From positions 3,242 to 67,241 of the forward strand of contig CP064974.1 of assembly GCA_016699385.1 (NCBI GenBank): DNA of 64,000 nt, written 5' to 3'. The stretch's first letter is position 1. Each line of letters begins with the position of its first letter. Of this stretch, positions 5,823 through 44,951 are shown piece after piece. The translations under genes were made by a program, and so were the position numbers. The notes below the pieces were generated by a model, which was given only the letters and a program-made list of their open reading frames with translations, was not told where the DNA came from and did no database searches. This stretch comes from Candidatus Moraniibacteriota bacterium (GTDB taxonomy: Bacteria; Patescibacteriota; Minisyncoccia; Moranbacterales; UBA1568).

Positions 5823-7321
5823 ATGAAACTCTCCCTCACATTTCCTCCAGTGGGGCGGCATCGCCGCCGTGCTGCTTGTTGTCGTCGGACTCAAACTACG
5901 ATTTCGAATCCAAAGCCAGCATGCAGCTCAATGGTTCTGTCGAGAGCTCGCTCTCCCAATCCCTCCGCGGCTACTGGAAACTCGATGACGGCTCCGGCAC
6001 CAACGCGACCGACAGTAGCGGAAACACGAACACCCTCGCCATGACCGGCTCCCCCGAGTTGGACGACGGGGAATATCGGTCCATACGCTCTCGACTTCTC
6101 CGGCTCCGGACAATACCTCTCCGTCGCCGATCCCGCAAGCGGTGTCCTCGACTTTGCCGATGGCGCCGACTTCTCCATCACCGGCTGGTTCAACCGAGAC
6201 TTTTCACCGCCGATCACGATCGTCGCCAAGAAAACAGATCTAACGACCAATGCCGGCTATGTGCTATGGATAGATAACAATGGAGGAACCGATTACCTCA
6301 ACTTCGAGATCGCCGATGGAACCGATACCTACAGCGTCGCTTCCTCTACCGACTTCAGCGCGACCGGTTGGCACAACTTTGCCGCCGTCTGGGATGACTC
6401 GAACGGCATGTATCTCTATATAGATGGCGGTCTCAACAGTAGCACGACCACATCAACCGCAAGTATCGGCAGTCTCGCCAATACCAATGCCTTCCGTATC
6501 GGCGCGGAATCAGATGCGGGCGTTCCCTTTGACGGGAAGCTCCGACGATATTCGCGTCTATGGCTCCGCCCTGAGCGCAAGCGATGTCTTGAAGCTCTAC
6601 CAAACGACCGCGCCGGCACAGCCGGTCGACACAGGGCTCGTCGGGCACTGGACCTTTGACGGACCGGATATTGCGGGGACGACCGCGATCGATCGGTCAA
6701 GTTTGGGAATAATGGAACGATAACGGGAGCGGTACCGACGATCGGGAAATTGGGCCAGGGGATGGGGTTTGATGGGACGGCGTCTACCTCAATCGATGCC
6801 GGGTCGGGGAGTTCTCTCGATAATCTGCCTGCCATGACCATAGCTTTCTGGGTGCGCATTGAATCCTTCCCGACCTTAAAGAACTATGTCCTCTCGAAAG
6901 ATTTGAATTGTTGCGGCGCGTCGGTCGGATGGATAACATCATTCCATTCGTACTACAAAATGTTTGCCCTCGAAGTACAATACGATGGCGGAACGAATTT
7001 GAACGCGAGTACACCGGACAATAGTTTCACTAGCAGTGACTTCGGAGTATGGACGCATGTGGCAGTCACTTGGACAGGAGCCAGTCAACATCGGGTATGA
7101 CCTTCTACAAAAAACGGAGTCAGCTTTGACAACAAGCAATTGGGATGACGGAATAGGGGAGCCGTGCTGATGATAGCGGCTATCCGGTTACAAATTGGCG
7201 CCGCCCCAAACTACGAAGGGGAAATGGAATTGACGGCTCCCTCGACGATATACGCCTCTATACCCGCGTCCTCTCGGCGACGGAAGTAGTGAACCTCTAT
7301 ACTCTCCAGGCGGTAGGGTGA
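5823..7321 (+). pseudogene. degraded paralogue (copy A) of the 3xLamG surface protein
   Basis: Fragmented frames reproduce blocks of the intact 38066..40228 protein (SQSLRGYWKLDDGSGTNATDSSGN..., WIDNNGGTDYLNFEIADGTDTY..., DDIRVYGSALSASDV...). There are several frame changes, plus a TM-like WGGIAAVLLVVVGL segment that is out of frame with the ATG. Confidence 0.65.
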
Positions 7322-7437
7322 TAGATGGAACGAGAAGCTTAGATACCTCATTCAATCCATTCAAGCGTGTTCATTTGTAAAAAATAATTTTCTAGCCGTC
7401 ATCCATACTGCCCCTCAAAATATCGGTCAAGAAGAGA

Positions 7438-10400
7438 ATGTTTCCATCAGTTTTCTTTTCGGTCACTGCCCTTTTTCTGTTCGTCGGTATTTCTTCAAGC
7501 GCCGAAGCAACCAAACAAATATGTGCGCCAGGTGCTTCTGGGAGTGGGAGCGATTGGGCGAACGCGTATGCGACATTGCCGAGCGATCTGACCCGCGGCG
7601 ATACCTACTACATCGCGGATGGGAGTTACGGCAGCTACACCTTCGACGACAACGCCAGCGGTACAACGCCGATCACTATCAAGAAATGCACTGCGAGCGA
7701 TCAAGGACGGAGACGGGGTACAGTTCGGCTTATTGCGACGGGCAGGCGGTATTTGGGTCATTTATTTTTGCGAGTGACTACTGGATTATTGATGGTGCAA
7801 CGCGGAATGAAAGTAATTGGGCTGATGGTGGTGCGTACGGTTTCCGCGTATCAACGTTCTCGGCGAACACGTCATTCTCGCCGGGAGTGTGCGCATCTAA
7901 TCTGACAATGCAGTATGTGAACGCAGGGGGCACGCCCACGGAAACCCGCCGACAGGCGGCGTGGACGCAGCATTTTTATATAGGCGGTTTTGATGAATAT
8001 TGTCAGAATTGGACGATGTCTCACAACTATGTGCACGACACAATCACAACCTATCATATGAATGGAGTACGGGGCGGGTTGATCGAGTACAGCTATATCG
8101 TAAATGGATGGTCAAAAGGAAGCGATCCGCGGTCAAATTTGTATGAGCAATTTTCCATTCGGCATAATATCTTCAAGGATTCCTGTCAGGGGAATCCTGC
8201 CGATCCCACAGCTGGTGCTTGTACTGGGACAATTGCCCTTTTTGATGGTTTTACGAAAACTCGGCATACGGGCTAATTCGAAAATCTACGGAAATGTTTT
8301 ATGGGTAATCAATAGTGCATCTATGCAAGATGCTATCATTGTTATCGGTGGATCAAACGACAATGTTCCGGGAGTGGAAATCTACAATAATACCCTGGCG
8401 GGTTTTAAGGAAGGGAATCTCGCTGGCTTGGTCCGAGGTTCGGGTAGCGTATGCCGAAACAATCTGTCATACGATACTGCCGCATCGGTTGCCTATAGTT
8501 GCTCGTCATCGTCAAATAACATTCACAGTAATATTTCCCCGTTCGTCAACTACTCAGGAGGAGATTTCCGCCTGTCTGGAGCTACGGCGGCGGGTTATTC
8601 TGGGTTCCTACAACGCGGATTTATTGAGCAATACCCGCGGGGCCGACGGGCACCTGGGACATCGGCGCCTACGAGTACACCTCCGGCTCTAGTACCCCGA
8701 CACCACTTCTCCCACTTCTCCCACCGGCCTCGCCGCAAACGCCACGAGCCAATCGAGCATCACCGTCTCCTGACCGCCTCGACCGATCCGATAGTCGCGG
8801 GACAGACCACCTCAGGTATTTCCAATTACATCGTCGAGCGCTGCCAAGGCTCCGGTTGTTCCACCTTCACCCAAGTCGGCACTCCGACCACCTCTCCCTT
8901 CGTCGACTCCGGCCTCACGCCAAACACCTTTTACAACTACTCACGTCCGCGCTGACCGATGCCCGGGAATCTCTCCGGCTGGTCCAATGTGGTCGGTGCC
9001 ACCACGCAGTCGGGCGGAGTCAATTATTACATCCGTGACGGAGGCACATCCTCAACCTGTACCGACTGGACGAATGCCTGTGGATTCGCTTCCCGTCGAC
9101 TCTGGTGCGCGGGGCAACCTACTATATCGCGGATGGGAGTTACGGCAGCTACACCTTCGACGACGACGCGAGCGGTACGACACCGATTACAATCAAGAAA
9201 TGCATTGCGAGCGATCACGGGACGGGGACGGGATACAGTGCGGACTATTGCGACGGGCAGGCGGTATTTGGCGGTCTGTATTTGCTCTCGCCCTTACTAT
9301 GTCATCGACGGCGCCACGCGAAAATGAAAGTAACTGGAAGGACGCCGGGGCTTATGGCATTAGAGCGACTGAAGTTCGGGCGTCTCGGCTCGATGGAGGA
9401 CATTTCCCATCAGGTGAATGCTCGGCGGATAATCTGTCGTTCAGCTATTTGCACGTCGGCAATACGGGACTACTTATGCCACATACACCGGGTCGAGATC
9501 TTTTTATCTAGGCGGGTTTGGGGCGGTGCGCTAGCCTGCCAAAAATTGGTCGATCTCTCGGGTACTTATTCAGAACACGCTGGAGTTGCAGTGCGCTGGC
9601 GGCGAAGGGCTTCTTGTTGAGAAAAGCTGTTTTACAAAGGTTGGTCCAAGGAAGCAATAGGGGGCAAGTGCATTGCAAGGATGCGATTGTTCGATGGAAT
9701 ATTTTTGAGGATTCATGTCACAATCCGCAAGAGGGCTATGCTTGTACTGGTGAAATTGCTGCTTGGGATGGAAATGCCAACTCAATGGATGCGTGGCAAT
9801 CTATGGTAATGTCTTCTACAAGACAGGGCAAGACACTTATCTCAATACAGACGCTGTTGTGATGATTGGAGATACGGTTGGTCCTGGGCCGACATTAATA
9901 ATTCCGTTGCATACGACAATACTATTGCAGGAATTAAGGTTGGTTATAATTCGAGCATCCACTAAACGGTGGCACAGGCAATGTCTGTCGCAATAATCTC
10001 TGGTATGATACCAAGACCAGTGGTTGTTCCGCGAATACTTCTAGCAATAATATCCTAGCTACTAGCAATCCGTTTGTTAATTATCCGGGCGGCGATTTGC
10101 GATTGTCCGGTACCACGGCGGCGGGTTATTCTCTGGGTTCACCCTACAACGCGGATTTATTGGGCAGCACCCGCGGTGCCGACGGCACCTGGGACATCGG
10201 CGCCTACGAGTACACCTCCGGCTCTAGTACCCCTGACACCACTTCTCCCACGTCTCCCATTTTACAACTATCATGTCCGCGCAACCGATGCCGCCGGGAA
10301 TCTCTCCGGCTGGAGCAATGTGGTCGGCGCCACCACACAAGCTCCTGATACGCAAGCGCCCACAGCTCCGAGTAATCTCCAAACCTCCGTCGTCTCATCC

Positions 10401-11736
10401 TCCAGCATCAACCTCGCCTGGACGGCAAGCACAGACAATGTCGCCGTCACCAATTACACCGTCGAACGCTGCTCCGGAACTTCCTGCACCACCTTCACCC
10501 AAATCGCCACTCCAACGACCAACTCCTACTCCGACGCCGGTCTTACGGGAACGACGACCTACCGCTACCGAGTCCTCGCAACCGATGCCGCCAACAACAC
10601 TTCCCCCTACTCAAATATTGCTTCCGCCACGACCCCCGAGACACCTCCCGTCTCCCAGTATCTCCAGGCGGGCTACAACTTTGCCGAAGGCACCGGCACC
10701 ACGACCCAAGACATCTCCGGTCACAATCACACCGGTACTCTCTCCAATACCACCTGGTCGACGAGCGGCAAATACGGAAACGCTCTCGACTTTAACGGAA
10801 CGAGCAGCTCTGTCGGTATTGGAAACTGGAACATTCCCGGAAGCGCCATCACCCTAAGCGCCTGGGTACGGGCGGACGACTGGAAGACGGACGATGTCCG
10901 CATCCTCTCCAAAGCAACCGACAGTACCGAACAGGGACATACCTGGATGCTCTCCGATTCCAATAGTCTCCTCCGCTTCCGCCTCAAAACCGGTGGCACA
11001 ACCACAACCCTCGTTGCAACGAGCGGCACTCTCCAAACAAATGTCTGGACTCATGTCGCCGCGGTCTATGACGGAAGCACGATGACACTCTACAAAGACG
11101 GACTCGAAGTCGGAAGCCAAGCCAAAACCGGCACCATCGATCAAAACACCGCCAACATTTCAATCGGAGCAAACCCGAAGGCTCCAACTCCTTTGACGGT
11201 ACGATAGACGATGTCCGCATCTACAACAAGGCGCTCACGCAACAAGAAATCCAAACCGATATGAATACCCCGCTCACCCAAGGAGGAAGCGGAACCCAAG
11301 TTTGCAACACCGTGACGACCGCGAACTTCTCCGATGCCGCTTACAACAGTTACGGCGCGCCTTTCGATGCGTTTCAAACGAGTACGAATCTGATGAATGC
11401 ACTGTGCACCAGCGCCGACACGCATACCATCACGTTCACGACCGGAGTAACGGAGACACCGCGAGAATCGTCTACACCAAAGGCTACTGGTACGATGCAA
11501 TAGGAAGCGCCTGGCGACAATACACCGGCACCTGCACGGGAGCGCTCAATGGCGAGTGGTGCCAAGGCTCCGTCTCCGCGACGATCACGGATGCCAATGT
11601 CTCCACTTCCGGGACGGGCTCACCCACCTACCTGGTCGGGATGACCTGCAGTGTGCAGGGAGGTGGGTGGAAGTGTGGGTGTAGAGATACGACGTGCGCG
11701 AATTTTTCGTGGCAGATACAGGGAGCGGGGATGTAG
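7438..11736 (+). pseudogene. degraded paralogue (copy A) of the large beta-helix/FN3/LamG surface protein
   Basis: The signal peptide MFPSVFFSVTALFLFVGISSSAEA is followed by more than 10 ORF fragments. Together these recapitulate the domain order of the 40316..44951 protein: beta-helix, FN3, second beta-helix, FN3x2, LamG, then the Cys-rich C-terminal domain ending GAGM* at 11736. Confidence 0.7.
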
Positions 11737-11773
11737 AAACGAAGATTTTGCGTCCCAATTATCTTTCCAACCT

Positions 11774-13967
11774 ATGTTTTCTATCCGACTCTTTCTTGGA
11801 CAATCATTGCGCTTTTTCTTGCTGTGGGGGCGGGGTTCTACTGGAAACACCAAGGGCAGAATGAATCAAAAGCCGGGACGACGGTGAATGCGCCCGAAAC
11901 AACAATCAATACGCTCACGACCGGACTCGTCGGGCATTGGACATTTGATGCCCTCGATATCTCCGGGACGACGGTAACGGATCGGGGAACCGGAGGAAAT
12001 GACGGGACGATCACGGGAGCAGTGCCAGCCTTGGGGAAACTGGGTCAGGGGATGGGGTTTGATGGGGGTGGGGATTATGTTTGCATGGGCGATGTCCTTG
12101 CATTCGAACGTACCGACCCATTTTCGCTTTCGGCATGGGTTCATCTCGCGACAGACTCGGATGTAGACGGTTCAATAATCGGAAAGATGGGTCCTACCCC
12201 TGATCAGCGAGGATACGACATCTATGCTTCGACCGCTTCATGGAAAGCGAATATTCGAAACAGCGATTCCGGTTCCAATGGCATCACCGTGAATGGACTT
12301 TCCGATATCGCCGATGAAACATGGCACCATATCGCTGTGACGTATGACGGTTCCTCGAGCGCTTCGGGGGTCACTCTGTACGTCGATGGCGCGGATGATA
12401 CGGGCACGACTGACATGGATACGCTTTCCGCTACCATTGTCTCGAGTGCGGATTTTTCGATGGGCACACGAAACTGCACCCCTTCGCCCATCTTTGATGT
12501 TAAGGGGGTGATCTGACGATGTTCGCATCTACTCCCGCGCGCTCACCCAAGCGGAAGTCTACCAGCTCTCCACTGCCGGCGTGGCGACGGTGAACGCTCC
12601 TGTCGAAGACCCCTCTCCCAATCCCTCCGCGGCTACTGGAAACTCGATGACGGCTCCGGCACCAATGCGACCGACAGTAGTGGAAATGCAAACACCCTCG
12701 CCATGACTGGCTCTCCCGGTTGGGTGACCGGAAACATCGGTCCCTCTGCCCTCGACTTCTCCGGAAGCGGACAATACCTCTCCGTCGCCGATCCCGCAAG
12801 CGGTGTCCTCGACTTTGCCAATGGAGCCGACTTCTCCCTCACAGGCTGGTTCAATCGAGACACTTTCACCGCCGACCACACCATCGTCGCCAAGAAAACC
12901 GACCAAGCTACCAATGCCGGCTATGTCGTCTGGATAGATGCCTCTACCGATACGGTCAACTTCGAAATTTCTGATGGTACCTATACCTACGAAGCAGACT
13001 CTACCACAACATTCACATCAACCGGTTGGCATCACTTCACTGCCGTCTGGGATGATAGTCGTGGTGCCTCTGTCTATATCGACGGAGGACTCAATGGAAG
13101 CACAGAAACCTCTACCAGTAGTATAGGAGACCTCTCGAACGCCAATGCCTTCCGTATCGGAGCCGAATCCGACGCCGGAGTTCCTTTTGATGGCAAGCTC
13201 GATGATATCCGCGTCTATGGCTACGCTCTCTGCTGACGAAGTAAAGAAGCTCTACAATACCACGAGCCCCGCCCAACCCGTCGACACCTCCTTGGTTGGG
13301 CACTGGACGTTTGATGGTCCGGATATTCAGGGAGTACCGCAATAGACAGGAGTAGCTTCGGGAACAATGGGACGATAACGGGAGCGGTACCGGTGAAGGG
13401 GAAATTGGGCCAGGGGATGAGTTTTGATGGGGATGGGGATTATGTGTATGCCGGGTCGGGGTCGTCGCTTGCCAATTTGAGCGCTCTCACGATTTCATTT
13501 GGATGAATTTGGATTCGTTTGGCCAGAATAGCCAGGGAAATGTTATCAACAAAGGTTCCGATTGTTGCACGCCTTTGGAAGGATTTCTCGTGAGAGTGGA
13601 CGGAATATATAATTTTGTCGTATTTGGTGTTGATTATGATGGAGCGACAGATCTTGCAATGCAGTCCCTTGATAATTCTCTGACGAGTTCAGATTTCGGT
13701 ATCTGGAATCATATCGCGGTGACATGGACCGGATCATCCGCAGCGACGAGCGTCGTCATATACAAGAACGGACAAAATGTCACTCAGTCATCCGGCGACA
13801 ATGGCATCGGAAGTCGGAGAGACGATTCCGGATCGGGTTTCCATATTGGAGTTGATGCAGGATGGCCCATTGCGCGTGCTTTTGATGGGAAACTCGACGA
13901 TGTCCGCCTCTACAATCGTGTCCTCTCGGCAACGGAAGTAATGAATCTCTATACTCTCGGGCGGTAG
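11774..13967 (+). pseudogene. degraded paralogue (copy B) of the 3xLamG surface protein
   Basis: The ATG at 11774 is out of frame with the TM/LamG reading frame, and there are at least 5 further frame changes. The 3' part (12596..13967) is identical to 38853..40228 except for single-base homopolymer/dinucleotide deletions (cccc->ccc, ctctct->ctct, gggg->ggg, tttt->ttt). Confidence 0.7.
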
Positions 13968-14350
13968 GGCGATAGATGGAACGAGAAGCATAGATACCTC
14001 ATTCAATCCATTCAAGCGTTCATTTGTAAAAAATAATTTTCTAGCCGTCATCCTATGCTACCCCTCAAAATATCGGTCAAGAAGAGAATGCTCCGATCAG
14101 TCTTCTTTTCGGTCACTGCCCTTTTTTTGTTCATCGGTATTTCTTCAAGCGCCGAAGCGGCAAACAAATATGTGCGCCAGGGTGCTTCTGGGAACGGGAG
14201 CGATTGGACGAACGCGTATGCGACATTGCCGAGCGATCTGACCCGCGGCGATACCTACTATATCGCGGATGGGAGTTACGGCAGCTACACCTTCGACGAC
14301 AACGCCAGCGGCACAACGCCGATCACGATTAAGAAATGCACTGCGAGCGA
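12596..14350 (+). repeat. dispersed duplication: about 1.76-kb block essentially identical to 38853..40635 (26 kb away)
   Basis: Minus- and plus-strand ORF-track peptides 12633..12914, 12720..12974, 12938..13126, 13546..13737 and 13788..14051 are letter-for-letter identical to 38890..39171, 38977..39231, 39195..39383, 39807..39998 and 40049..40312. The offset drifts from 26257 to 26261 because of 4-5 single-base indels. Confidence 0.9.
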
Positions 14351-17063
14351 TCATGGGACGGAGACTGGGTACAGTTCGGCTTATTGCGACGGGCAGGCGG
14401 TATTTGGGTCATTTATTTTTGCGAGTGACTACTGGATTATTGATGGTGCAACGCGGAATGAAAGTAATTGGGCTGATGGTGGTGCGTACGGTTTCCGCGT
14501 ATCAACGTTCTCGGCGAACACGTCATTCTCGCCGGGAGTGTGCGCATCTAATCTGACAATGCAGTATGTGAACGCAGGGGGCACGCCCACGGGAAACCCG
14601 CCGACAGGCGGCGTGGACGCAGCATTTTATATAGGCGGTTTTGATGAATATTGTCAGAATTGGACGATGTCTCACAACTATGTGCACGACACAATCACAA
14701 CCTATCATATGAATGGAGTACGGGGCGGGTTGATCGAGTACAGCTATATCGTAAATGGATGGTCAAAGGAAGCGATCCGCGGTCAAATTTGTATGAGCAA
14801 TTTTTCCATTCGGCATAATATCTTCAAGGATTCCTGTCAGGGGAATCCTGCTGATCCCACAGCTGGTGCTTGTACTGGGACAATTGCCCTTTTTGATGGT
14901 TACGAAAACTCGGCATGCTGGGCTAATTCGAAAATCTACGGAAATGTTTTATGGGTAACCAATAGTGCATCTATGCAAGATGCTATCATTGTTATCGGTG
15001 GATCAAACGACAATGTTCCGGGAGTGGAAATCTACAATAATACCCTGGCGGGTTTTAAGGAAGGGAATCTCGCTGTCTTGGTCCGAGGTTCGGGTAGCGT
15101 ATGCCGAAACAATCTGTCATACGATACTGCCAGATCGGTTGCCTATAGTTGCTCGTCATCGTCAAATAACATTCACAGTAATATTTCTCCGTTCGTCAAC
15201 TACTCAGGAGGAGATTTCCGCCTGTCTGGAGCTACGGCGGCGGGTTATTCTCTGGGTTCACCCTACAACGCGGATTTATTGAGCAATACCCGCGGTGCCG
15301 ACGGCACCTGGGACATCGGCGCCTACGAGTACACCTCCGGCTCTAGTACCCCCGACACCACGTCTCCCACTTCTCCCACCGGCCTCGCCGCAAACGCCAC
15401 GAGCCAATCGAGCATCACCGTCTCCTGGACCGCCTCGACCGATCCGACAGTCGCAGGACAAACCACGTCAGGTATTTCCAATTACGTCGTCGAACGCTGC
15501 CAAGGAACAGGCTGTTCCACCTTCACCCAAGTCGGCACTCCGACCACCTCTCCCTTCGTCGACTCCGGCCTCACGCCAAACACCTTTTACAACTATCACG
15601 TCCGCGCGACCGATGCCGCCGGGAATCTCTCCGGCTGGTCCAATGTGGTCGGCGCCACCACACAAGCTCCTGATACGCAAGCGCCCACAGCTCCGAGTAA
15701 TCTCCAAACCTCCGTCGTCTCATCCTCCAGCATCAACCTCGCCTGGACGGCAAGCACAGACAATGTCGCCGTCACCAATTACACCGTCGAACGCTGCTCC
15801 GGAACTTCCTGCACCACCTTCACCCAAATCGCCACTCCAACGACCAACTCCTACTCCGACGCCGGTCTTACGGGAACGACGACCTACCGTTACCGAGTCC
15901 TCGCAACCGACGCCGCCAACAACCTCTCCCCCTATTCGAATATTGCTTCCGCGACCACGCCCGTTGCGCCTCCCGTCTCCCAGTATCTCCAGGCGGGCTA
16001 CAACTTTGCCGAAGGTACCGGCACCACCACCCAAGACATCTCCGGTCACAACCACGCCGGTACTCTCTCCAATACAACTTGGTCGACGAGCGGCAAATAC
16101 GGAAACGCTCTCGACTTTAACGGAACGAGCAGCTCTGTCGGTATTGGAAACTGGAACATTCCCGGAAGCGCCATCACCCTAAGCGCCTGGGTACGGGCGG
16201 ACGACTGGAAGACGGACGATGTCCGCATCCTCTCCAAAGCAACCGACAGTACCGAACAGGGTCATACCTGGATGCTCTCCGATTCCAATAGTCTCCTCCG
16301 CTTCCGCCTCAAAACCGGTGGCACAACCACAACCCTCGTTGCAACGAGCGGCACTCTCCAAACAAATGTCTGGACTCATGTCGCCGCGGTCTATGACGGA
16401 AGCACGATGACACTCTACAAAGACGGACTCGAAGTCGGAAGCCAAGCCAAAACCGGCACCATCGATCAAAACACCGCCAACATTTCAATCGGAGCAAATC
16501 CCGAAGGCTCCAACTCCTTTGACGGTACGATAGACGATGTCCGCATCTACAACAAGGCGCTCACGCAATCAGAAATCCAAACCGATATGAATACGGCGCT
16601 TACTTCGGGAGGAGGCGGTACGGTCGCCTGCAACACGGTGACGACCGCGAACTTTTCCGATGCCGCTTACAACAGTTACGGCGCGCCTTTCGATCCCTTC
16701 ACGAGTAACACCCCGCTTGTCAATGTGACCTGTAACAGCGCCGATACCGACACGATCACTCTCACGACCGGCATAACCGGCGACACGACCCGCATCGTCT
16801 ACACCAAAGGCTACTGGTACGATGCAATAGGAAGCGCCTGGCGACAATACACCGGCACCTGCACGGGAGCGCTCAATGGCGAGTGGTGCCAAGGCTCCGT
16901 CTCCGCGACGATCACGGATGCCAATGTCTCCACTTCCGGGACGGGCTCACCCACCTACCTGGTCGGGATGACCTGCAGTGTGCAGGGAGGTGGGTGGAAA
17001 TGCGGATGTCGGGACACGAGTTGTACGAATTTCTCGTGGCAGATTCAAGGGGCGGGACAGTGA
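14055..17063 (+). CDS. large secreted surface protein (copy B, intact): signal peptide, right-handed beta-helix (pectate-lyase-like) domain, 2 FN3 domains, LamG_3 domain and an about 150-aa Cys-rich C-terminal domain
   Basis: 1002-aa ORF. The likely true start is the second ATG at 14088 (MLRSVFFSVTALFLFIGISSSAEA), which has a GAAGAGA RBS. A beta-helix cap motif (RGADGTWDIGAYEY) and two FN3-like units (ITVSWTASTD...YNYHVRATDAAGNLSGWSN; INLAWTASTDNVAVTNYTVERC...YRYRVLATDAANN) are present. A LamG_3 signature (GNALDFNGTSSS...ITLSAWVRADDW...FDGTIDDVRIYNKALTQSEIQ) follows, then a C-terminus with 8 Cys (...GGGWKCGCRDTSCTNFSWQIQGAGQ*). Confidence 0.8.
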   Translation: MLPLKISVKKRMLRSVFFSVTALFLFIGISSSAEAANKYVRQGASGNGSDWTNAYATLPSDLTRGDTYYIADGSYGSYTFDDNASGTTPITIKKCTASDHGTETGYSSAYCDGQAVFGSFIFASDYWIIDGATRNESNWADGGAYGFRVSTFSANTSFSPGVCASNLTMQYVNAGGTPTGNPPTGGVDAAFYIGGFDEYCQNWTMSHNYVHDTITTYHMNGVRGGLIEYSYIVNGWSKEAIRGQICMSNFSIRHNIFKDSCQGNPADPTAGACTGTIALFDGYENSACWANSKIYGNVLWVTNSASMQDAIIVIGGSNDNVPGVEIYNNTLAGFKEGNLAVLVRGSGSVCRNNLSYDTARSVAYSCSSSSNNIHSNISPFVNYSGGDFRLSGATAAGYSLGSPYNADLLSNTRGADGTWDIGAYEYTSGSSTPDTTSPTSPTGLAANATSQSSITVSWTASTDPTVAGQTTSGISNYVVERCQGTGCSTFTQVGTPTTSPFVDSGLTPNTFYNYHVRATDAAGNLSGWSNVVGATTQAPDTQAPTAPSNLQTSVVSSSSINLAWTASTDNVAVTNYTVERCSGTSCTTFTQIATPTTNSYSDAGLTGTTTYRYRVLATDAANNLSPYSNIASATTPVAPPVSQYLQAGYNFAEGTGTTTQDISGHNHAGTLSNTTWSTSGKYGNALDFNGTSSSVGIGNWNIPGSAITLSAWVRADDWKTDDVRILSKATDSTEQGHTWMLSDSNSLLRFRLKTGGTTTTLVATSGTLQTNVWTHVAAVYDGSTMTLYKDGLEVGSQAKTGTIDQNTANISIGANPEGSNSFDGTIDDVRIYNKALTQSEIQTDMNTALTSGGGGTVACNTVTTANFSDAAYNSYGAPFDPFTSNTPLVNVTCNSADTDTITLTTGITGDTTRIVYTKGYWYDAIGSAWRQYTGTCTGALNGEWCQGSVSATITDANVSTSGTGSPTYLVGMTCSVQGGGWKCGCRDTSCTNFSWQIQGAGQ

Positions 17064-17097
17064 GAGTTCAAAGTTAAAAGTGAAAAATTCAAAGTTG

Positions 17098-18289: not shown

Positions 18290-18591
18290 ATCAGTAGTAT
18301 CGGCGACACCACCCGAATCGTCTACACCAAAGGCTACTACTATGATCCCGGTATTGCTGACTGGCATCAGTTTACCGGCACCTGTACAGGTGCCCTCAAT
18401 GGAGAATGGTGCCAAGGAAGTATCACTGCTTCCATTACCGATACCGATATCTCGACTGCGAGTGCCATAGACCCTGCCTACTTTGTCGGGATGACCTGCA
18501 GTATCCAAGGTGGTGGATGGAAGTGTGGGTGTCGGGATACAACGTGTTCAAACTTCTATTGGCAGGTGCAGGGGGCGGGGTTGTAGAGTGA
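18290..18591 (+). pseudogene. orphan 3' fragment encoding only the Cys-rich C-terminal domain of the large surface-protein family
   Basis: In-frame translation gives ISSIGDTTRIVYTKGYYYDPGIADWHQFTGTCTGALNGEWCQGSITASITDTDISTASAIDPAYFVGMTCSIQGGGWKCGCRDTTCSNFYWQVQGAGL*. This is about 75% identical to the C-termini of the 14055 and 40316 proteins. There is no start codon and no upstream domains. It begins 6 nt after the Fic stop. Confidence 0.7.
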
Positions 18592-33815: not shown

Positions 33816-33834
33816 CTTTTTAACACGTACGCGT

Positions 33835-36047: not shown

Positions 36048-36176
36048 CATATACGAAAAACAGTGCGAGATGTATGGTTTTTTTGATGCCTTTTCAACTG
36101 ACTCTTAAAAAAGTTTCAAATCTCAAATTTCTGAAATCGTTTTCTCATTTCAGGTCTGGATTTTGAATTTTTTCCT

Positions 36177-37232
36177 ATGTTTTCCTCTCACATTCGACTG
36201 TCTGATCGGGCGATGTTTGCGAAGCATCTTTCTATGATGTTGAAGAGCGGGATATCTCTTCCGGAAGCGCTTCGCGTGCTCGAAATGGAGACGAAGCTCC
36301 CGATATTTCAGCGAGTGCTCCAATCAGTATGTACTGATGTTGAGCGTGGCAAGAAACTTGCGGAAGCGCTTCGGATTCATCAGAAGGATTTCGACCCGTT
36401 TTTCGTGAGTGTTGTTGAAGTGAGTGAAGAGTCGGGCACACTCTCGGAAAATCTGGAATTTCTTGCGAAACAACTTTCAAAAGAAGATGCCTTGCACAAA
36501 AAGATTCAGGGTATATTACTCTATCCGGCGCTTATCCTTGTGGTTGCGGCAATTATGGGGAGTTTCATTAGTATATTCATCTTGCCGAAGCTCATCGATC
36601 TCTTTGATTCGCTCGACGTGACACTTCCGTGGTCAACGCGTGCGCTCTTGTGGTTTGCGGCACTCATGAAGGCGCATGGATTTCTCATTATCACATCATG
36701 TATTGGTTTTTTTGCTATGCTTCGTTTCGCAGTGCATACCCGACTGGTCGAGGCAAGGTGGCATATGTTTCTTCTTTCACTTCCAATAATCGGAACATTC
36801 CTCTCGGCAGTTTCCCTCGGGCGACTCTTCCGCGGACTTGGCATTATGATGCGAAGCGGGCTTCCGCTTGTGCATGCTCTTGGCGTTGAGGAACAGAGTC
36901 TTACAAACCGCGTCTTTCAGCGCTATACTCGGGAACTCAAAGAAGGCGTCTCAACCGGTACAGAACTTTCTGTCCTCCTTGAGCGTTCAGGATTCCGGCA
37001 TGTGCCGCCGCTCGCAACCAAGATGGTCGCGGTTGGTGAGAGAACGGGGAAGCTCGATGAAAGTTTCTTCTTCTTGAGCCGATTTTTTGATGAAGAGGTG
37101 GACACCGTTGCGAAACGATTTTCGACACTCCTCGAGCCAACGCTTCTTTTTGCGATTGCTGGCATCGTGCTTTTCATCGCACTGTCTATTATCACCCCGA
37201 TTTATTCGCTGACAGGGTCGCTACAGAGATAA
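36177..37232 (+). CDS. pilC: type IV pilus platform protein (GspF/PilC family)
   Basis: 351 aa, polytopic, with duplicated GspF-type cytoplasmic domains (LSMMLKSGISLPEAL...; LGIMMRSGLPLVHAL...). Confidence 0.85.
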   Translation: MFSSHIRLSDRAMFAKHLSMMLKSGISLPEALRVLEMETKLPIFQRVLQSVCTDVERGKKLAEALRIHQKDFDPFFVSVVEVSEESGTLSENLEFLAKQLSKEDALHKKIQGILLYPALILVVAAIMGSFISIFILPKLIDLFDSLDVTLPWSTRALLWFAALMKAHGFLIITSCIGFFAMLRFAVHTRLVEARWHMFLLSLPIIGTFLSAVSLGRLFRGLGIMMRSGLPLVHALGVEEQSLTNRVFQRYTRELKEGVSTGTELSVLLERSGFRHVPPLATKMVAVGERTGKLDESFFFLSRFFDEEVDTVAKRFSTLLEPTLLFAIAGIVLFIALSIITPIYSLTGSLQR

Positions 37233-37279
37233 GCAGAGGTATAGAGTTTGTAATTCCCATTTTTTATTCCTGCTCTTCC

Positions 37280-37717
37280 ATGATTTCTCGAGGATTTACT
37301 GTTATTGAGCTTCTTCTTGTTGTGGCAATTTTCTTTGTGATCGCTGGATTTGCACCGGCTTTCTATAGTCGATTTTTGTCGCAGGATGCTGTTGCCGAGA
37401 CGGCCGATCGTCTTGCTGGCTCACTTCGAAATGCGCAGGGATATTCACTTGCAGGGAAGGGGAGTCTTCCGTGGGGGGTGGCTCTTAGTAATAGTTCCCT
37501 CGTGCTTTTTCAAGGTGCTTCATTTGCGACTCGGAATATATCGCTCGATCGGCGAGTTGCTATACCTTCGTCTGTTTCGGTAAGTGGCTTGAGTGAGACT
37601 GTCTTTGCTCGCGTTTCGGGAATACCGACAGCTCCTCTCACGGTTTCCCTCACTGCCTCGGGTGGCGCTTCACAAACGCTTGTCATGAATGCGCTTGGCG
37701 TTGTGAATCGGGAGTGA
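37280..37717 (+). CDS. type IV pilin / pseudopilin with a prepilin-type N-terminal cleavage-methylation motif
   Basis: MISRGFTVIELLLVVAIFFVIAG has G-F at the cleavage site and Glu at +5. Confidence 0.75.
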   Translation: MISRGFTVIELLLVVAIFFVIAGFAPAFYSRFLSQDAVAETADRLAGSLRNAQGYSLAGKGSLPWGVALSNSSLVLFQGASFATRNISLDRRVAIPSSVSVSGLSETVFARVSGIPTAPLTVSLTASGGASQTLVMNALGVVNRE

Positions 37718-38031
37718 GAGTCGTTTTTGCCAACGACTCTCACAAAGAAAATGCCCACCATACGCGTGGTTATTTTTTTGTAAAATCATTTTTTCTATCC
37801 CTACACCCCTCCCCCTTGCACCTGCCAGTTGAAACTCGCACACGCCGTATCCCGACACCCGCACTTACACCCGCCACCCTGCACAGAGCCCGTCATCCCC
37901 ACAAGGTAGGCAGGGTCTGTGGCGCTTGCGGTACGAGTATCAATATCTACAGTATACCACTTCTCTCTCATTTTTTTCACCGGTTGTTTTACGAGTCACT
38001 TCTCATATTTTCGTTCAAGAATTCGGGACCA

Positions 38032-38059: not shown

Positions 38060-38065
38060 GCCCTC

Positions 38066-40228
38066 ATGCATCGGAAAACGAAACGCGCGTATTTGTTTCA
38101 ATGGATTATCATTTCCCTCTTCCTCCTCGCGGGGACAGGAGGATATTTTTGGTATCAGTCGAAGGCGGGCGTGACGGTCAGTTCGCCAGGGACCAGTGAC
38201 AATGCTCTCACGAGCGGGCTCGTGGCACACTGGACTTTCGATCAGAATCATATCGTGTGGAGCGATACGACGACGGAAATTAAGGACTCGACTGCCGGCG
38301 CACAACATGGCAATGCCGTTGGCTCTCTATCAGAGGCAAGTGTCGTCCCTGGCAAGCAGGGGCAGGCGCTCAAGTTTAATGGGACGAGCGATCAGATAGA
38401 GACTCCCTACAACACGACACTCACTTCCTACTCTTTTGCCTTTTGGTTCAAGACGGGGGACGTGCATGTGGATGATTATGATACGATTATCGCAAAGTTT
38501 TATTATGACCGTTGCGAAATACGAGGGTACGCCAATGAACTCCTCGCTTGTACAATTGATAATTCAAGTAATCTTGTGTACTCCCGCTCCTCCGTTATTG
38601 ATGATACATGGCATCACGGAGTCTTCACAGTAACAAATGGCAGTCAGAAGCTCTATGTAGATGGTATACTCAATGATTCACGGACTGATGCATTCACCTC
38701 AGCTCCTGATACAATATCCATTGGCGTTGACTATGACTTGTCGAGTGCATCTCGCTTCCCTGGCTCCATCGACGATGTCCGTGTCTACAACCGCGTCCTC
38801 TCCGCTTCCGAAGTCTACCAGCTCTACACGGCTGGCACCGCAACAGTAAATGCTCCTGTCGAAGACCCCCTCTCCCAATCCCTCCGCGGCTACTGGAAAC
38901 TCGATGACGGCTCCGGCACCAATGCGACCGACAGTAGTGGAAATGCAAACACCCTCGCCATGACTGGCTCTCCCGGTTGGGTGACCGGAAACATCGGTCC
39001 CTCTGCCCTCGACTTCTCCGGAAGCGGACAATACCTCTCCGTCGCCGATCCCGCAAGCGGTGTCCTCGACTTTGCCAATGGAGCCGACTTCTCCCTCACA
39101 GGCTGGTTCAATCGAGACACTTTCACCGCCGACCACACCATCGTCGCCAAGAAAACCGACCAAGCTACCAATGCCGGCTATGTCGTCTGGATAGATGCCT
39201 CTACCGATACGGTCAACTTCGAAATTTCTGATGGTACCTATACCTACGAAGCAGACTCTACCACAACATTCACATCAACCGGTTGGCATCACTTCACTGC
39301 CGTCTGGGATGATAGTCGTGGTGCCTCTGTCTATATCGACGGAGGACTCAATGGAAGCACAGAAACCTCTACCAGTAGTATAGGAGACCTCTCGAATGCC
39401 AATGCCTTCCGTATCGGAGCCGAATCCGACGCCGGAGTTCCTTTTGATGGCAAGCTCGATGATATCCGCGTCTATGGCTACGCTCTCTCTGCTGACGAAG
39501 TAAAGAAGCTCTACAATACCACGAGCCCCGCCCAACCCGTCGACACCTCCTTGGTTGGGCACTGGACGTTTGATGGTCCGGATATTCAGGGGAGTACCGC
39601 AATAGACAGGAGTAGCTTCGGGAACAATGGGACGATAACGGGAGCGGTACCGGTGAAGGGGAAATTGGGCCAGGGGATGAGTTTTGATGGGGATGGGGAT
39701 TATGTGTATGCCGGGTCGGGGTCGTCGCTTGCCAATTTGAGCGCTCTCACGATTTCATTTTGGATGAATTTGGATTCGTTTGGCCAGAATAGCCAGGGAA
39801 ATGTTATCAACAAAGGTTCCGATTGTTGCACGCCTTTGGAAGGATTTCTCGTGAGAGTGGACGGAATATATAATTTTGTCGTATTTGGTGTTGATTATGA
39901 TGGAGCGACAGATCTTGCAATGCAGTCCCTTGATAATTCTCTGACGAGTTCAGATTTCGGTATCTGGAATCATATCGCGGTGACATGGACCGGATCATCC
40001 GCAGCGACGAGCGTCGTCATATACAAGAACGGACAAAATGTCACTCAGTCATCCGGCGACAATGGCATCGGAAGTCGGAGAGACGATTCCGGATCGGGTT
40101 TCCATATTGGAGTTGATGCAGGATGGCCCATTGCGCGTGCTTTTGATGGGAAACTCGACGATGTCCGCCTCTACAATCGTGTCCTCTCGGCAACGGAAGT
40201 AATGAATCTCTATACTCTCGGGCGGTAG
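38066..40228 (+). CDS. membrane-anchored 3xLamG (concanavalin A-like lectin) surface protein (copy C, intact)
   Basis: The ORF track starts at 37919, but the TM anchor begins after Met-50 (MHRKTKRAYLFQWIIISLFLLAGTGGYFW) at 38066. Three LamG_3-type units each end with a DD(I/V)R(V/L)Y(N/G)xxLSA(D/S/T)E(V)...LY motif. Confidence 0.8.
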   Translation: MHRKTKRAYLFQWIIISLFLLAGTGGYFWYQSKAGVTVSSPGTSDNALTSGLVAHWTFDQNHIVWSDTTTEIKDSTAGAQHGNAVGSLSEASVVPGKQGQALKFNGTSDQIETPYNTTLTSYSFAFWFKTGDVHVDDYDTIIAKFYYDRCEIRGYANELLACTIDNSSNLVYSRSSVIDDTWHHGVFTVTNGSQKLYVDGILNDSRTDAFTSAPDTISIGVDYDLSSASRFPGSIDDVRVYNRVLSASEVYQLYTAGTATVNAPVEDPLSQSLRGYWKLDDGSGTNATDSSGNANTLAMTGSPGWVTGNIGPSALDFSGSGQYLSVADPASGVLDFANGADFSLTGWFNRDTFTADHTIVAKKTDQATNAGYVVWIDASTDTVNFEISDGTYTYEADSTTTFTSTGWHHFTAVWDDSRGASVYIDGGLNGSTETSTSSIGDLSNANAFRIGAESDAGVPFDGKLDDIRVYGYALSADEVKKLYNTTSPAQPVDTSLVGHWTFDGPDIQGSTAIDRSSFGNNGTITGAVPVKGKLGQGMSFDGDGDYVYAGSGSSLANLSALTISFWMNLDSFGQNSQGNVINKGSDCCTPLEGFLVRVDGIYNFVVFGVDYDGATDLAMQSLDNSLTSSDFGIWNHIAVTWTGSSAATSVVIYKNGQNVTQSSGDNGIGSRRDDSGSGFHIGVDAGWPIARAFDGKLDDVRLYNRVLSATEVMNLYTLGR

Positions 40229-40315
40229 GGCGATAGATGGAACGAGAAGCATAGATACCTCATTCAATCCATTCAAGCGTTCATTTGTAAAAAATAATTT
40301 TCTAGCCGTCATCCT

Positions 40316-43300
40316 ATGCTACCCCTCAAAATATCGGTCAAGAAGAGAATGCTCCGATCAGTCTTCTTTTCGGTCACTGCCCTTTTTTTGTTCATCGGTA
40401 TTTCTTCAAGCGCCGAAGCGGCAAACAAATATGTGCGCCAGGGTGCTTCTGGGAACGGGAGCGATTGGACGAACGCGTATGCGACATTGCCGAGCCGATC
40501 TGACCCGCGGCGATACCTACTATATCGCGGATGGGAGTTACGGCAGCTACACCTTCGACGACAACGCCAGCGGCACAACGCCGATCACGATTAAGAAATG
40601 CACTGCGAGCGATCATGGGACGGAGACTGGGTACGGCGCGGGGTATTGCGATGGGCAGGCGGTATTTGGTGGTCTGACTTTTAAGCGCCCCTACTATGTG
40701 TTTGATGGTGCAAAACGAAATGAAGACAATTGGCAAGAGACGCTAGCCTATGGCTTTAAGACGTCCGAAATTTACGCAAACACAGGTGATGGCGCAAATG
40801 CTCCGAACATAATAATACGCTATGTGGATATCGGCGGTCCGAACGGAGAAATATGTACCGGGAGTACGCCAGGAAGTGGTATATATGCCGTGTATGGAAG
40901 CATGCACAACTGGACCATTTCCCGAAGCCATATACATAACGTGGAAATCAGTATTCGGACTGTTAATGTAAATAATTGGACTATTGAACATACCCATCTT
41001 GGTCCGAGTTGGGCAAAAGAAAGCATTTCAAACAATGAAGCGAGCGGGTGGATTCTTCGACACAATAAATTCATCGACAATCTCATCTATCCTCCAACCG
41101 CTTGCCAACACGGTGGCGACGGCGCGACGGCAGATATGTGGACTCGTGTAACCAACGGATCGAATGATAATTGGTCAGTCTATGGAAATGTTTTCGGAGA
41201 TAGTGGCACGTACAACAACATCATGCGCACCAATGCGGTCGTATTGGGAAGTTATTGGAGCGGTCCGTCGGACGGTGTTAGTGGGTGGAAAGTGTACAAC
41301 AATGTGTTTTACAACATTCAAGGAGGACAAAATCTCGTCAAACTGGGGAACGGAAGCGGCAATGTCGTCGCGAATAATCTATGGTATAAATCGCGGGAAG
41401 CCGGTCAAAATATCGGTATCGTTACCAATGGAACAGCTTATACCTCATGGTGCAATTCTACACCCTATTCCCTCTGCCCCTCTTCGCCCGGGACGTGGCT
41501 GCAAGGAAGCGACAATCCTTTCGTCAATGTAACTGGTTTTAATTTTAATCTTAAATCTTCGATTTCTGGCGCATCTCCCATTAATGCTGGAACGGCGCTT
41601 GGCGAAGGCTTTGACTCAATTGACGGAAACGGAAATACCCGCGGTGCCGACGGCACCTGGGACATCGGCGCCTACGAGTACACCTCCGGCTCTAGTACCC
41701 CCGACACCACTTCCCCCACTTCTCCCACCGGCCTCGCCGCAAACGCCACGAGCCAATCGAGCATCACCGTCTCCTGGACCGCCTCGACCGATCCGATAGT
41801 CGCGGGACAGACCACCTCAGGTATTTCCAATTACATCGTCGAGCGCTGCCAAGGCTCCGGTTGTTCCACCTTCACCCAAGTCGGCACTCCGACCACCTCT
41901 CCCTTCGTCGACTCCGGCCTCACGCCAAACACCTTTTACAACTATCACGTCCGCGCGACCGATGCCGCCGGGAATCTCTCCGGCTGGTCCAATGTGGTCG
42001 GTGCCACCACGCAGTCGGGCGGAGTCAATTATTATATCCGTGACGGAGGCACATCCTCAACCTGTACCGACTGGACGAATGCCTGTGATTCGCTTCCGTC
42101 GACTCTGGTGCGCGGGGCAACCTACTATATCGCGGATGGGAGTTACGGCAGCTACACCTTCGACGACGACGCGAGCGGTACGACACCGATTACAATCAAG
42201 AAATGCATTGCGAGCGATCACGGGACGGGGACGGGATACAGTGCGGACTATTGCGACGGGCAGGCGGTATTTGGCGGTCTGTATTTCACTCGTCCTTATT
42301 ATGTCATCGACGGCGCCACGCGAAATGAAAGTAACTGGAAGGACGCCGGGGCTTATGGCATTAGAGCGACTGAAGTTCGGGCGTCTCGGCTCGATGGAGG
42401 ACATTCCCCATCAGGTGAATGCTCGGCGGATAATCTGTCGTTCAGCTATTTGCACGTCGGCAATACGGGGACTACTTATGCCACATACACCGGGTCGAGA
42501 TCTTTTTATCTAGGCGGGTTTGGGGGCGGTGCGCTAGCCTGCCAAAATTGGTCGATCTCTCGGGTACTTATTCAGAACACGCTGGAGTTGCAGTGCGCTG
42601 GCGGCGAAGGGCTTCTTGTTGAGAAAAGCTATTTTTACAAAGGTTGGTCCAAGGAAGCAATAAGGGGGCAAGTGCATTGCAAGGATGCGATTGTTCGATG
42701 GAATATTTTTGAGGATTCATGTCACAATCCGCAAGAGGGCTATGCTTGTACTGGTGAAATTGCTGCTTGGGATGGAAATGCCAACTCAATGGATGCGTGG
42801 CAAATCTATGGTAATGTCTTCTACAAGACAGGGCAAGACACTTATCTCAATACAGACGCTGTTGTGATGATTGGAGATACGGTTGGTCCTGGGCCGATTA
42901 CTAATAATTCCGTTGCATACGACAATACTATTGCAGGAATTAAGGTTGGTTATAATTCGAGCATCCACTTAAACGGTGGCACAGGCAATGTCTGTCGCAA
43001 TAATCTCTGGTATGATACCAAGACCAGTGGTTGTTCCGCGAATACTTCTAGCAATAATATCCTAGCTACTAGCAATCCGTTTGTTAATTATCCGGGTGGC
43101 GATTTGCGATTGTCCGGTACCACGGCGGCGGGTTATTCTCTGGGTTCACCCTACAACGCGGATTTATTGGGCAGCACCCGCGGTGCCGACGGCACCTGGG
43201 ACATCGGCGCCTACGAGTACACCTCCGGCTCTAGTACCCCCGACACCACGTCTCCCACTTCTCCCACCAACCTCGCCGCTACTGCTCCTTCATCCTCCAG

Positions 43301-44951
43301 CATCACCGTCTCCTGGACCGCCTCGACCGATCCGACAGTCGCAGGACAAACCACGTCAGGTATTTCCAATTACGTCGTCGAACGCTGCCAAGGAACAGGC
43401 TGTTCCACCTTCACCCAAGTCGGCACTCCGACCACCTCTCCCTTCGTCGACTCCGGCCTCACGCCAAACACCTTTTACAACTATCACGTCCGCGCGACCG
43501 ATGCCGCCGGGAATCTCTCCGGCTGGTCCAATGTGGTCGGTGCGACGACCCAAGCTCCTGATACGCAAGCGCCCACAGCTCCGAGCAATCTCCAAACCTC
43601 CGTCGTCTCATCCTCCAGCATCAACCTCGCCTGGACGGCAAGCACAGACAATGTCGCCGTCACCAATTACACCGTCGAACGCTGCTCCGGAACTTCCTGC
43701 ACCACCTTCACCCAAATCGCCACTCCAACGACCAACTCCTACTCCGACGCCGGTCTTACGGGAACGACGACCTACCGCTACCGAGTCCTCGCAACCGATG
43801 CCGCCAACAACACTTCCCCCTACTCGAATATTTCTTCCGCCACGACCCCCGAGACACCTCCCGTCTCCCAGTATCTCCAGGCGGGCTACAACTTTGCCGA
43901 AGGCACCGGCACCACCACCCAAGACATCTCCGGTCACAACCACACCGGTACTCTCTCCAATACCACCTGGTCGACGAGCGGCAAATACGGAAACGCTCTC
44001 GACTTTAACGGAACGAGCAGCTCTGTCGGTATTGGAAACTGGAACATTCCCGGAAGCGCCATCACCCTAAGCGCCTGGGTACGGGCGGACGACTGGAAGA
44101 CGGACGATGTCCGCATCCTCTCCAAAGCAACCGACAGTACCGAACAGGGTCATACCTGGATGCTCTCCGATTCCAATAGTCTCCTCCGCTTCCGCCTCAA
44201 AACCGGTGGCACAACCACAACCCTCGTTGCAACGAGCGGCACTCTCCAAACAAATGTCTGGACTCATGTCGCCGCGGTCTATGACGGAAGCACGATGACA
44301 CTCTACAAAGACGGACTCGAAGTCGGAAGCCAAGCCAAAACCGGCACCATCGATCAAAACACCGCCAACATTTCAATCGGAGCAAATCCCGAAGGCTCCA
44401 ACTCCTTTGACGGTACGATAGACGATGTCCGCATCTACAACAAGGCGCTCACGCAATCAGAAATCCAAACCGATATGAATACGGCGCTTACTTCGGGAGG
44501 AGGCGGTACGGTCGCCTGCAACACCGTGACGACCGCGAACTTCTCCGATGCCGCTTACAACAGTTACGGCGCGCCTTTCGATGCGTTTCAAACGAGTACG
44601 AATCTGATGAATGCACTGTGCACCAGCGCCGACACGCATACCATCACGCTCACGACCGGAGTAACGGGAGACACCGCGAGAATCGTCTACACCAAAGGCT
44701 ACTGGTACGATGCAATAGGAAGCGCCTGGCGACAATACACCGGCACCTGCACGGGAGCGCTCAATGGCGAGTGGTGCCAAGGCTCCGTCTCCGCGACGAT
44801 CACGGATGCCAATGTCTCCACTTCCGGGACGGGCTCACCCACCTACCTGGTCGGGATGACCTGCAGTGTGCAGGGAGGGAGTTGGAAGTGCGGGTGTCGG
44901 GATACGGCGTGTGCGAGTTTCAACTGGCAGGTGCAAGGGGGAGGGATGTAG
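40316..44951 (+). CDS. large secreted surface protein (copy C, long form; one frameshift near 40495): signal peptide, 2 beta-helix domains, 3 FN3 domains, LamG_3 domain, Cys-rich C-terminal domain
   Basis: The ORFs 40316..40594 and 40431..44951 overlap. The N-terminus is identical to the 14055 gene up to a one-base insertion (gagccgatc versus gagcgatc). The likely start is the ATG at 40349. The domain architecture was read from motifs as for copy B, plus a second beta-helix (GGVNYYIRDGGTSSTCTDWTNAC...). Confidence 0.75.

Follow-up and report, generated by a model that had tools for sequence, protein, structure and literature searches.

Mosaic LamG/beta-helix two-gene cassettes in a Moranbacterales genome and the probable Nanopore origin of their frameshifts

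Contig CP064974.1 of Candidatus Moraniibacteriota bacterium contains, within the stretch of 64,000 nucleotides (nt) analysed here (the window, whose coordinates are used throughout), three paralogous two-gene cassettes, A, B and C, each made of a small gene for a protein with LamG domains followed by a large gene for a protein with beta-helix, FN3 and LamG domains and a C-terminal domain (CTD). An initial annotation of this DNA had described one intact set and two decayed upstream copies and had proposed that the decayed copies serve C as silent cassettes serve an expressed locus. We favour a different reading, to which we assign a probability of about 85%: the cassettes would belong to a multi-copy mosaic family of secreted proteins with LamG, beta-helix, FN3 and carbohydrate-binding module (CBM)-like domains, and the frameshifts that make some of them look decayed would be residual Nanopore errors. 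This reading draws on the paralogy and mosaicism of the copies, the domains and folds of their products, the spectrum of insertions and deletions (indels), the provenance of the assembly and the intact frames of independent short-read assemblies.

The paralogy proposed in the initial annotation is borne out by a self-BLASTN of the window, in which the shared tracts are 94-98% identical and all lie on the plus strand. Cassette A matches B over 7241-9008 and 13893-15664 (95.6% identity), and it matches C over 8630-10259 and 41634-43266 (98.0%) and over 10260-11736 and 43473-44951 (96.4%); B matches C over 12515-14471 and 38771-40733 (97.0%) and over 15188-17052 and 43076-44940 (94.1%). Every start and stop codon that had been named for these genes was found in the sequence, and the distribution of frameshifts in the deposited sequence is the one previously described: a single one in C, frameshifts in the LamG gene only in B, and both genes affected in A.

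In cassette A, the small gene (5823..7321, +) was reconstructed from tblastn frames as a divergent allele that is split into several frames and encodes a signal-anchor followed by two LamG domains, not three as previously assumed. At ~499 codons it is comparable to the 495-amino-acid (aa) LamG gene of L078, a short-read contig of a relative, and it is 78-80% identical at the nucleotide level to its counterparts in B and C. Its 5' 260 nt are ~97% identical to the L078 gene, with indels of -2, +1 and +1, and its first shift lies at 5837 (CACA to CA). The large gene of A (7405..11736, +) codes for a signal peptide, a beta-helix of the B type, an FN3 domain, a second beta-helix of the type termed C2, a partial and a complete FN3 domain, a LamG domain and the CTD; it is a mosaic, B-like in its 5' part and C-like in the middle. 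It carries ~35 small indels and a 206-nt deletion within an FN3 domain at 10259/10260, and its homologous start codon (7405) reads ATA, not ATG.

The small gene of cassette B (11774..13967, +) encodes a signal-anchor and three LamG domains, the first of them unique and the second and third ~100% identical to those of C, and is interrupted by ~6 frameshifts (~11785, ~12510, 12606/12613, 13231, 13332 and 13500). The four shifts between 12606 and 13500 are deletions specific to B when compared with both C and L078, and fall in C5, (CT)n, G4 and T4 runs. The large gene of B (14055..17063, +) is intact and specifies a protein of 1002 aa (QQR77554.1) with a Sec signal peptide, a beta-helix, two FN3 domains, a LamG domain and a Cys-rich CTD of 140 aa. 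In cassette C, the small gene (38066..40228, +) is intact and encodes 720 aa with three LamG domains, and the large gene (40316..44951, +) encodes a signal peptide, a beta-helix (C1), an FN3 domain, a second beta-helix (C2), two further FN3 domains, a LamG domain and the CTD, with a single extra C at 40495 that cuts the signal peptide off from the remainder. Taken literally, the deposited sequence holds no fully intact cassette.

Residual homopolymer indels fragment open reading frames (ORFs) in Nanopore assemblies, especially in repeats missed by short-read polishing. CP064974 is the metagenome-assembled genome (MAG) EsbW_18-Q3-R4-48_MAXAC.267_cln, circular, 1,111,322 bp long and assigned to Moranbacterales f__UBA1568 (Singleton et al., 2021, Supplementary Data 3; PMC8012365), with coverage of 41x by Nanopore and 20x by Illumina (PMC8012365). 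It was assembled with CANU and polished with Racon, twice with medaka and finally with Illumina reads in a single round of Racon (--include-unpolished); its authors circularised the contig and inspected it by hand (PMC8012365). The record thus combines error-prone long reads with incomplete short-read polishing.

Frameshifts are also found upstream of cassette A. The argS gene (2396..3703, +), the 3' part of which belongs to a unit repeated in relatives, is split over at least four frames, recQ (3784..5617, +) is split by 14 small indels and has an intact twin (QQR77519.1) elsewhere in the genome, and a surface gene at 742-1657 (-), unrelated to the cassettes, is split in the same way. The block of frameshifts, with ~60 indel sites, extends from the window start to ~13,500, ending inside cassette B, and all six genes in 1-13.5 kb are broken, as against ~2 of ~30 afterwards (Fisher p ~5e-6, with an approximate gene count). 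The only frameshifts found from 13.5 to 64 kb were those at 40495 and 55274, each a single-C extension inside repeated sequence. The codon-usage frame tracker was noisy and was used as a qualitative map only.

For the indel spectrum we counted copy-specific and uncompensated events, because raw global alignment adds gap pairs that compensate each other where the copies have diverged, and does so in the intact controls as well. The indels are mostly changes of one base pair (bp) in homopolymer or dinucleotide runs; 20 of the 49 pooled 1-bp indels lie in runs of three or more, for which the chance expectation is 0.16 (p 3e-5). Over 8630-10259, A differs from C by 18 indels and 14 substitutions, and over 7700-8600 there are seven A-specific indels and nine substitutions, where the same columns show no indels and two substitutions between B and L078. 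Between ~12665 and 13967, B differs from C by ~3 indels and at most two substitutions. One T-run reads T2 in B, T3 in a fourth copy described below and T4 in A. Such a spectrum, mostly 1-bp homopolymer indels that are as frequent as substitutions or more so and independent of gene function, is the one expected of long-read artefacts.

When the reading frame of an intact relative was projected onto the broken copies, no nonsense codon was found in 1522 codons of A, 482 of the B LamG gene, 599 of recQ and 205 of argS, more than 2,800 in total; the sole apparent in-frame stop in the A LamG gene falls between a compensating +1/-1 pair. Substitutions in the projected copies are biased to third positions, with 52 synonymous and 31 non-synonymous changes in A, compared with ratios of 42:28 (B versus C) and 82:43 (B versus L078) in the intact controls. 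Window recQ differs from that of the L170 contig by 55 synonymous and nine non-synonymous changes, no nonsense codons and 14 frameshifts. In the intact controls, all indels are compensated. Neither the nonsense codons nor the even spread of substitutions over codon positions that mark genuine pseudogenes were found, and the substitution patterns of the frame-corrected copies show strong purifying selection.

Independent short-read assemblies carry the same genes in frame. In L078 (ENA) both cassette genes are intact, at 495 aa for the LamG gene and 1002 aa for the large gene, and the argS 3' and recQ 5' frames are open; L170 (ENA) encodes an intact 612-aa RecQ. The A-type LamG allele is intact in L081 (JGI), which indicates that the remaining shifts in the A small gene are specific to A. 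The same strain is also represented by L171 (Logan, SRR11674038), a short-read contig whose full length aligns with 3038-5849, a segment that comprises the argS 3' end, recQ, intergenic DNA and the first 27 nt of the A LamG gene. Over these 2.8 kb, 11 mismatches and 27 indel events separate it from the window, the indels falling in coding and intergenic DNA alike; it lacks the first frameshift of A (5837), and it encodes an intact RecQ. In-frame alleles from the same or a close strain are therefore present in L171, L078, L170 and L081, with the proviso that L171 may be a twin copy. As far as assembled sequences show, the account of one intact set and two decayed copies gives way to one of consensus errors, given the Nanopore source, the same indel noise in housekeeping genes and intergenic DNA, and the excess of indels over substitutions relative to L171.

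The distribution of indels suggests how such errors could have survived polishing. Indel-dense stretches are argS/recQ, which has a twin upstream, the 5' part and middle of A, with twins in B, the fourth copy and C (98-99% identity), and the LamG gene of B, with a twin in C (~100%). The 3' third of A, 93-96% identical to any twin, has two indels only. Since indel density tracks identity to a twin, we infer that short reads were mapped to the better copy and that the other copy was left unpolished.

The products of both genes are modular. Pfam searches, all above the gathering threshold, placed Laminin_G_3 (PF13385) three times in the small protein of C (E 2.5e-68; 229 bits over three stretches), and Laminin_G_3 (115-116 bits) and fn3 (PF00041; 55-77 bits) in the large proteins. 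The N-terminal 410 residues of the large protein are modelled by AlphaFold 2 (AF2) as a right-handed parallel beta-helix (pLDDT 90.5, pTM 0.91), for which the best Foldseek match in the PDB is the pectate lyase Pel9A (1ru4; E 1.4e-6, TM 0.55), followed by PL6, PL9 and GH136 entries; identity to the solved structures is 10-15%. The LamG, FN3 and pectate-lyase-fold assignments of the initial annotation are upheld by these Pfam hits and by the model of the protein encoded from 14055. Residues invariant in the family include W16, R29, K59, H65, D372, R378, D385 and E390. Among the three beta-helix alleles (B-type, C1 and C2), amino acid identity is 88-100% over the N-terminal ~85 residues and the C-terminal RGADGTWDIGAYEY cap and only 23-55% in the cores. 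In beta-helix, FN3 spacers, LamG and terminal beta-sandwich, the large proteins resemble modular polysaccharide lyases and hydrolases (PL9 Pel9A, PL6 alginate/chondroitin lyases, GH136), but they differ from those lyases in having a beta-helix that matches no Pfam or NCBIfam lyase model and is only distantly related to solved structures.

The last 140 residues of the large protein (16641-17060 in B) form the Cys-rich CTD, which matches no Pfam or NCBIfam model. AF2 models it with moderate confidence as a beta-sandwich (pLDDT 67.6), and a Foldseek search with this model gave no significant match in the PDB. Its relatives number 659 cluster representatives at E<=1e-3. In close relatives the domain is always at the extreme C-terminus of otherwise differing proteins, and distant relatives adjoin GH26, PL14, Pel9A-like/chondroitinase-B, F5/8-C and chitobiase domains. 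This distribution is how carbohydrate-binding modules behave, and the CTD is probably an undescribed module of that kind. The large proteins have a Sec-type signal peptide with an AEA|A site, and the small proteins a single hydrophobic anchor. The LamG protein resembles the haloarchaeal Tat-fimbria subunit TafC in its LamG-type domain (E 1.8e-29), but an identity as TafC (NF052521) was rejected at a score of 103 against a cut-off of 410, so that the resemblance stays at the level of the domain. Secretion, glycan binding or depolymerisation, and a role in attachment to a host or floc are what these features suggest.

A LamG gene lies immediately 5' of a large FN3- and CTD-encoding gene in the independent assemblies L001, L003, L005, L010, L081, L082, L078 and L170, a recurrence that marks the two genes as a conserved unit. 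In short-read contigs of relatives this pair forms part of a larger repeat unit consisting of an argS 3' fragment, recQ, the LamG gene and the large gene. The order in L170 is a first recQ, a cassette, an argS fragment, a second recQ and the start of the next LamG gene, and its two recQ copies are 99.6% identical (470 codons of the first copy compared). Where cassette and argS fragment meet in L078 (4691-4716) and L170 (6482-6505), the stop codon of the large gene and 18 nt of A-type 3' flank are fused to mid-argS, at a 10-nt sequence, ATTTTGCGTC, that is common to the A 3' flank (11745-11754) and mid-argS (2964-2974) in the window. In the window A directly precedes B, which may be the true arrangement or a collapse in assembly.

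An intact RecQ (QQR77519.1) is encoded elsewhere in CP064974, 24 accession numbers before the RecQ fragment of the window (QQR77543.1), and is followed by QQR77521.1, the N-terminal piece of an L078-like large protein; together they point to a fourth cassette unit upstream of the window, a near-twin of the recQ-A unit. The large gene of this fourth copy, known from protein records only, is cut at codon ~281 by a difference in T-run length. The genome holds at least four copies of the two-gene operon, three of them in the window. The protein P0121 was considered as a fragment of cassette A and rejected as such, since its sequence and accession number assign it to the fourth copy, beyond the window.

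When identity among A, B, C and L078 is followed along sliding windows, a patchwork emerges, with long tracts at 100% shared by all of them. In the alignment of the FN3-LamG-CTD region, A pairs with L078 and B with C in columns 901-1000, and A, C and L078 group against B in columns 1051-1200. This patchwork shows that the copies exchange sequence, as the initial annotation proposed, and reflects concerted evolution in which full-length paralogues undergo gene conversion with one another and across strains. Both the long identical tracts across copies and strains and the patches with switching groupings recall the concerted evolution of other paralogous surface-protein families; unlike the generic case, amplification of the cassette family in relatives takes in recQ and an argS fragment, and orphan CTD relics are left behind. 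When genome and metagenome contigs were scanned with the B protein, L078-type relatives came up but no contig of the same species, and exact-protein look-ups of the B large protein, P0121, the Fic protein encoded 3' of B and the C LamG protein found no contigs.

In the model that we favour, the first gene would encode a membrane-anchored protein with two or three LamG lectin-like domains, and the second a Sec-secreted modular protein with one or two PL9/PL6-like beta-helix modules, FN3 spacers, a LamG domain and the 140-aa Cys-rich beta-sandwich. Copies would diversify by duplication and homologous recombination (gene conversion), with variable beta-helix cores set between a conserved 5' cap and a conserved 3' FN3/LamG/CTD part, and in relatives the family is amplified in units of argS 3' fragment, recQ, LamG gene and large gene. 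The apparent decay of A, of B and of one site in C would be due to consensus errors left in repeat copies that Illumina polishing missed. Several points weigh against this model. The frameshift errors are called from assembled sequences. The RecQ of L171 is identical to QQR77519.1, so that L171 may represent the twin unit and not the window copy, and with an intact recQ elsewhere in the genome the window recQ, and possibly argS, need not function. The argument from the essentiality of argS, considered as proof of error, is weakened by the argS fragments in the lineage and by the second, intact recQ. Neither the 206-nt FN3 deletion nor the ATA start in A is a homopolymer error, and each may be a genuine defect; an error rate of ~1% after medaka at 41x is high and hints at more than a plain failure of polishing, for example a low-coverage variant path or misassembly; and the beta-helix protein has no Pel9A-like, Beta_helix or lyase match in Pfam at E<0.01 and no NCBIfam lyase match. 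The lesions are like residual Nanopore indels in being 1-bp homopolymer or dinucleotide changes, in affecting coding and intergenic DNA, in breaking unrelated neighbours and in being absent from short-read assemblies; they are unlike typical ones in their density of ~1 per 100 nt, their confinement to one block and, in A, the presence of the 206-nt deletion and clustered substitutions.

Two alternatives concern the nature of the damaged block itself. The lesions could be real and record very recent birth-and-death decay, in which the recQ-A unit and the B LamG gene were redundant and became inactivated by genuine small indels, and the intact RecQ and twin large gene upstream in the same genome (QQR77519.1 and QQR77521.1), the deletion and ATA start in A, and the orphan CTD relics, which show that family members die, all speak for it. 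In real bacterial pseudogenes, though, substitutions outnumber indels, and the block departs from this general rule, with 27 indels to 11 substitutions in 2.8 kb against L171, some of them in intergenic DNA 3' of recQ. The homopolymer enrichment, the lack of nonsense among projected codons, the T2/T3/T4 variation of the same T-run in three copies and the compensation of all indels in the intact controls make decay a very unlikely explanation. We also think it quite unlikely that all or part of 1-13.5 kb, including a separate locus A, is spurious or a collapsed copy, assembled from sparse or mixed reads that belong to the upstream twin, to B and to C. An indel error of ~1% despite 41x Nanopore coverage would fit such a misassembly, as would the composition of A, a chimera of twin- or B-like and C-like sequence with an odd 206-nt deletion, the tandem units of relatives, which could collapse, and the flanks of L171, which fit both copies. 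Against it, the LamG allele and 3' flank of A copy nothing in the window and have orthologues in L081, L170 and L078, the full-length 5' part of argS and the direct A-to-B junction differ from the argS-fragment junction of relatives, and the authors of the contig closed it into a circle and checked it by hand.

The remaining alternative is the one put forward in the initial annotation, with A and B as silent decayed donors and C as the expression locus of a gene-conversion system of surface variation like pilE/pilS or vls. As in Neisseria pilE/pilS and Borrelia vlsE/vls, several homologous copies cluster in one region, their sequence relationships are patchy, and variable beta-helix cores stand between conserved segments; recQ, on which pilin variation in Neisseria depends, accompanies the cassettes in relatives. 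The copies differ from those systems, however, in being complete. All three run from a start codon (ATA in A) and signal peptide through the entire set of domains to a stop codon, no donor truncated so as to lack promoter, start or N-terminal coding sequence is present, and the spacer between LamG and large gene is conserved in A, B and C. The supposed expression locus C carries a frameshift that removes its own signal peptide, intact A- and B-type genes occur in short-read assemblies, and the damage, very probably artefactual, consists of indels only, without nonsense codons and with signs of purifying selection, and reaches argS, recQ and intergenic DNA. Known systems have cis elements, a G-quadruplex upstream of pilE and an inverted repeat at vlsE. 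No G-quadruplex motif lies upstream of C, such motifs being found only within LamG coding sequence and once in the C large gene, and no recombinase, invertase or reverse transcriptase was found among the window ORFs scanned. The observed mosaicism has no direction. We regard a silent-cassette system at this locus as highly implausible.

The initial annotation also linked the cassettes to type IV pili. Genes for PilB, PilC and a GspH-like minor pilin (34335..37717, +) do lie immediately 5' of cassette C, and this part of the claim stands; the link itself is weak. Only cassette C abuts them, pilB/pilC occur within ~7 kb of a cassette only in L055 among the relatives screened for these genes, and the cassette of L003 has an unrelated gene context. 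Only the ORF at 37280-37717 matches N_methyl/GspH. No prepilin (class III) motif was found in small or large proteins, the LamG proteins beginning with MHRKTKRAYLFQWIIISLF or MKLSLTHFLQWGG, and neither LamG nor large proteins show the class III signal peptide and N-methylation motif of a type IV pilin or modular pilin adhesin.

Two orphan CTD relics, both absent from the initial annotation, accompany the cassettes. One (18296..18587, +) consists of the last ~97 codons of a large gene and lies directly 3' of a Fic/DOC-domain gene (17655-18284, +), which itself sits between the flank of cassette B and the relic, placed as though the bulk of an earlier large gene had given way to it. The other (37800..37947, -) was found by self-comparison and is inverted. 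Its positions 37800-37910 (-) form with 44842-44952 (+) an inverted repeat of 111 nt, 89% identical and CTD-coding, which brackets the entire cassette C and, from its position, could mediate inversion of the 7-kb segment. An orphan CTD fragment is also present just 3' of the large gene in L003 (13879-14000), another Moranbacterales MAG, so that such relics recur. A hairpin-forming element of 37 nt (GAGGGAATTGCGTACGGGCGATTCCGGGTAATCGCCC) occurs three times (17097-17366) in the interval that separates cassette B from the Fic gene, and looks like a repetitive extragenic palindrome (REP) or miniature inverted-repeat transposable element (MITE). Promoters and terminators were scanned for, with counts no different from chance, and the only signals seen, a weak promoter-like site at 5773-5801 and hairpins that follow A and B, carry no weight here.

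Two further genes of the window deserve mention. One, at 48904-64000 (+), is a giant gene encoding 5,000 aa or more, without a Pfam hit. Its ORF stops at 55437 through a 1-nt insertion in a C-run at 55274, as seen by comparison with an internal paralogous repeat at 52969, and the following frame stays open as far as the window end; the gene contains eight tandem repeats of 660 bp (220 aa) at 55738-61399 that are 99.8% identical. The leucyl-tRNA synthetase (27114-30077, +; 987 aa) gives a NUDIX hit (PF00293, E 1.4e-8) at residues 433-527, a domain apparently inserted after the editing domain.

These results carry a caution: the silent-cassette geometry in this closed candidate phyla radiation (CPR) genome is very probably a polishing failure in repeats, and the CP064974 record would hold many false pseudogenes in this region. 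They make no long-standing question directly testable. They document at least four mosaic secreted proteins, inferred to be glycan-binding or possibly depolymerising, in an uncultivated Moranbacterales lineage, and identify a repeat unit of argS fragment, recQ, LamG gene and large gene as well as a widespread Cys-rich module for which Pfam has no model. A wider interpretation, speculative and in our estimate rather unlikely, is that full-length two-gene cassettes, amplified together with recQ, are kept in Moranbacterales genomes as an array able to expand, in which homologous recombination across the conserved 5' cap and the 3' FN3/LamG/CTD part would shuffle beta-helix specificity modules between loci and strains, leaving the orphan CTD relics and the inverted CTD repeat around C. 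If true, such module shuffling would let an episymbiont retarget the glycans of its host or floc, a switch of specificity by recombination that would need no silent donors.

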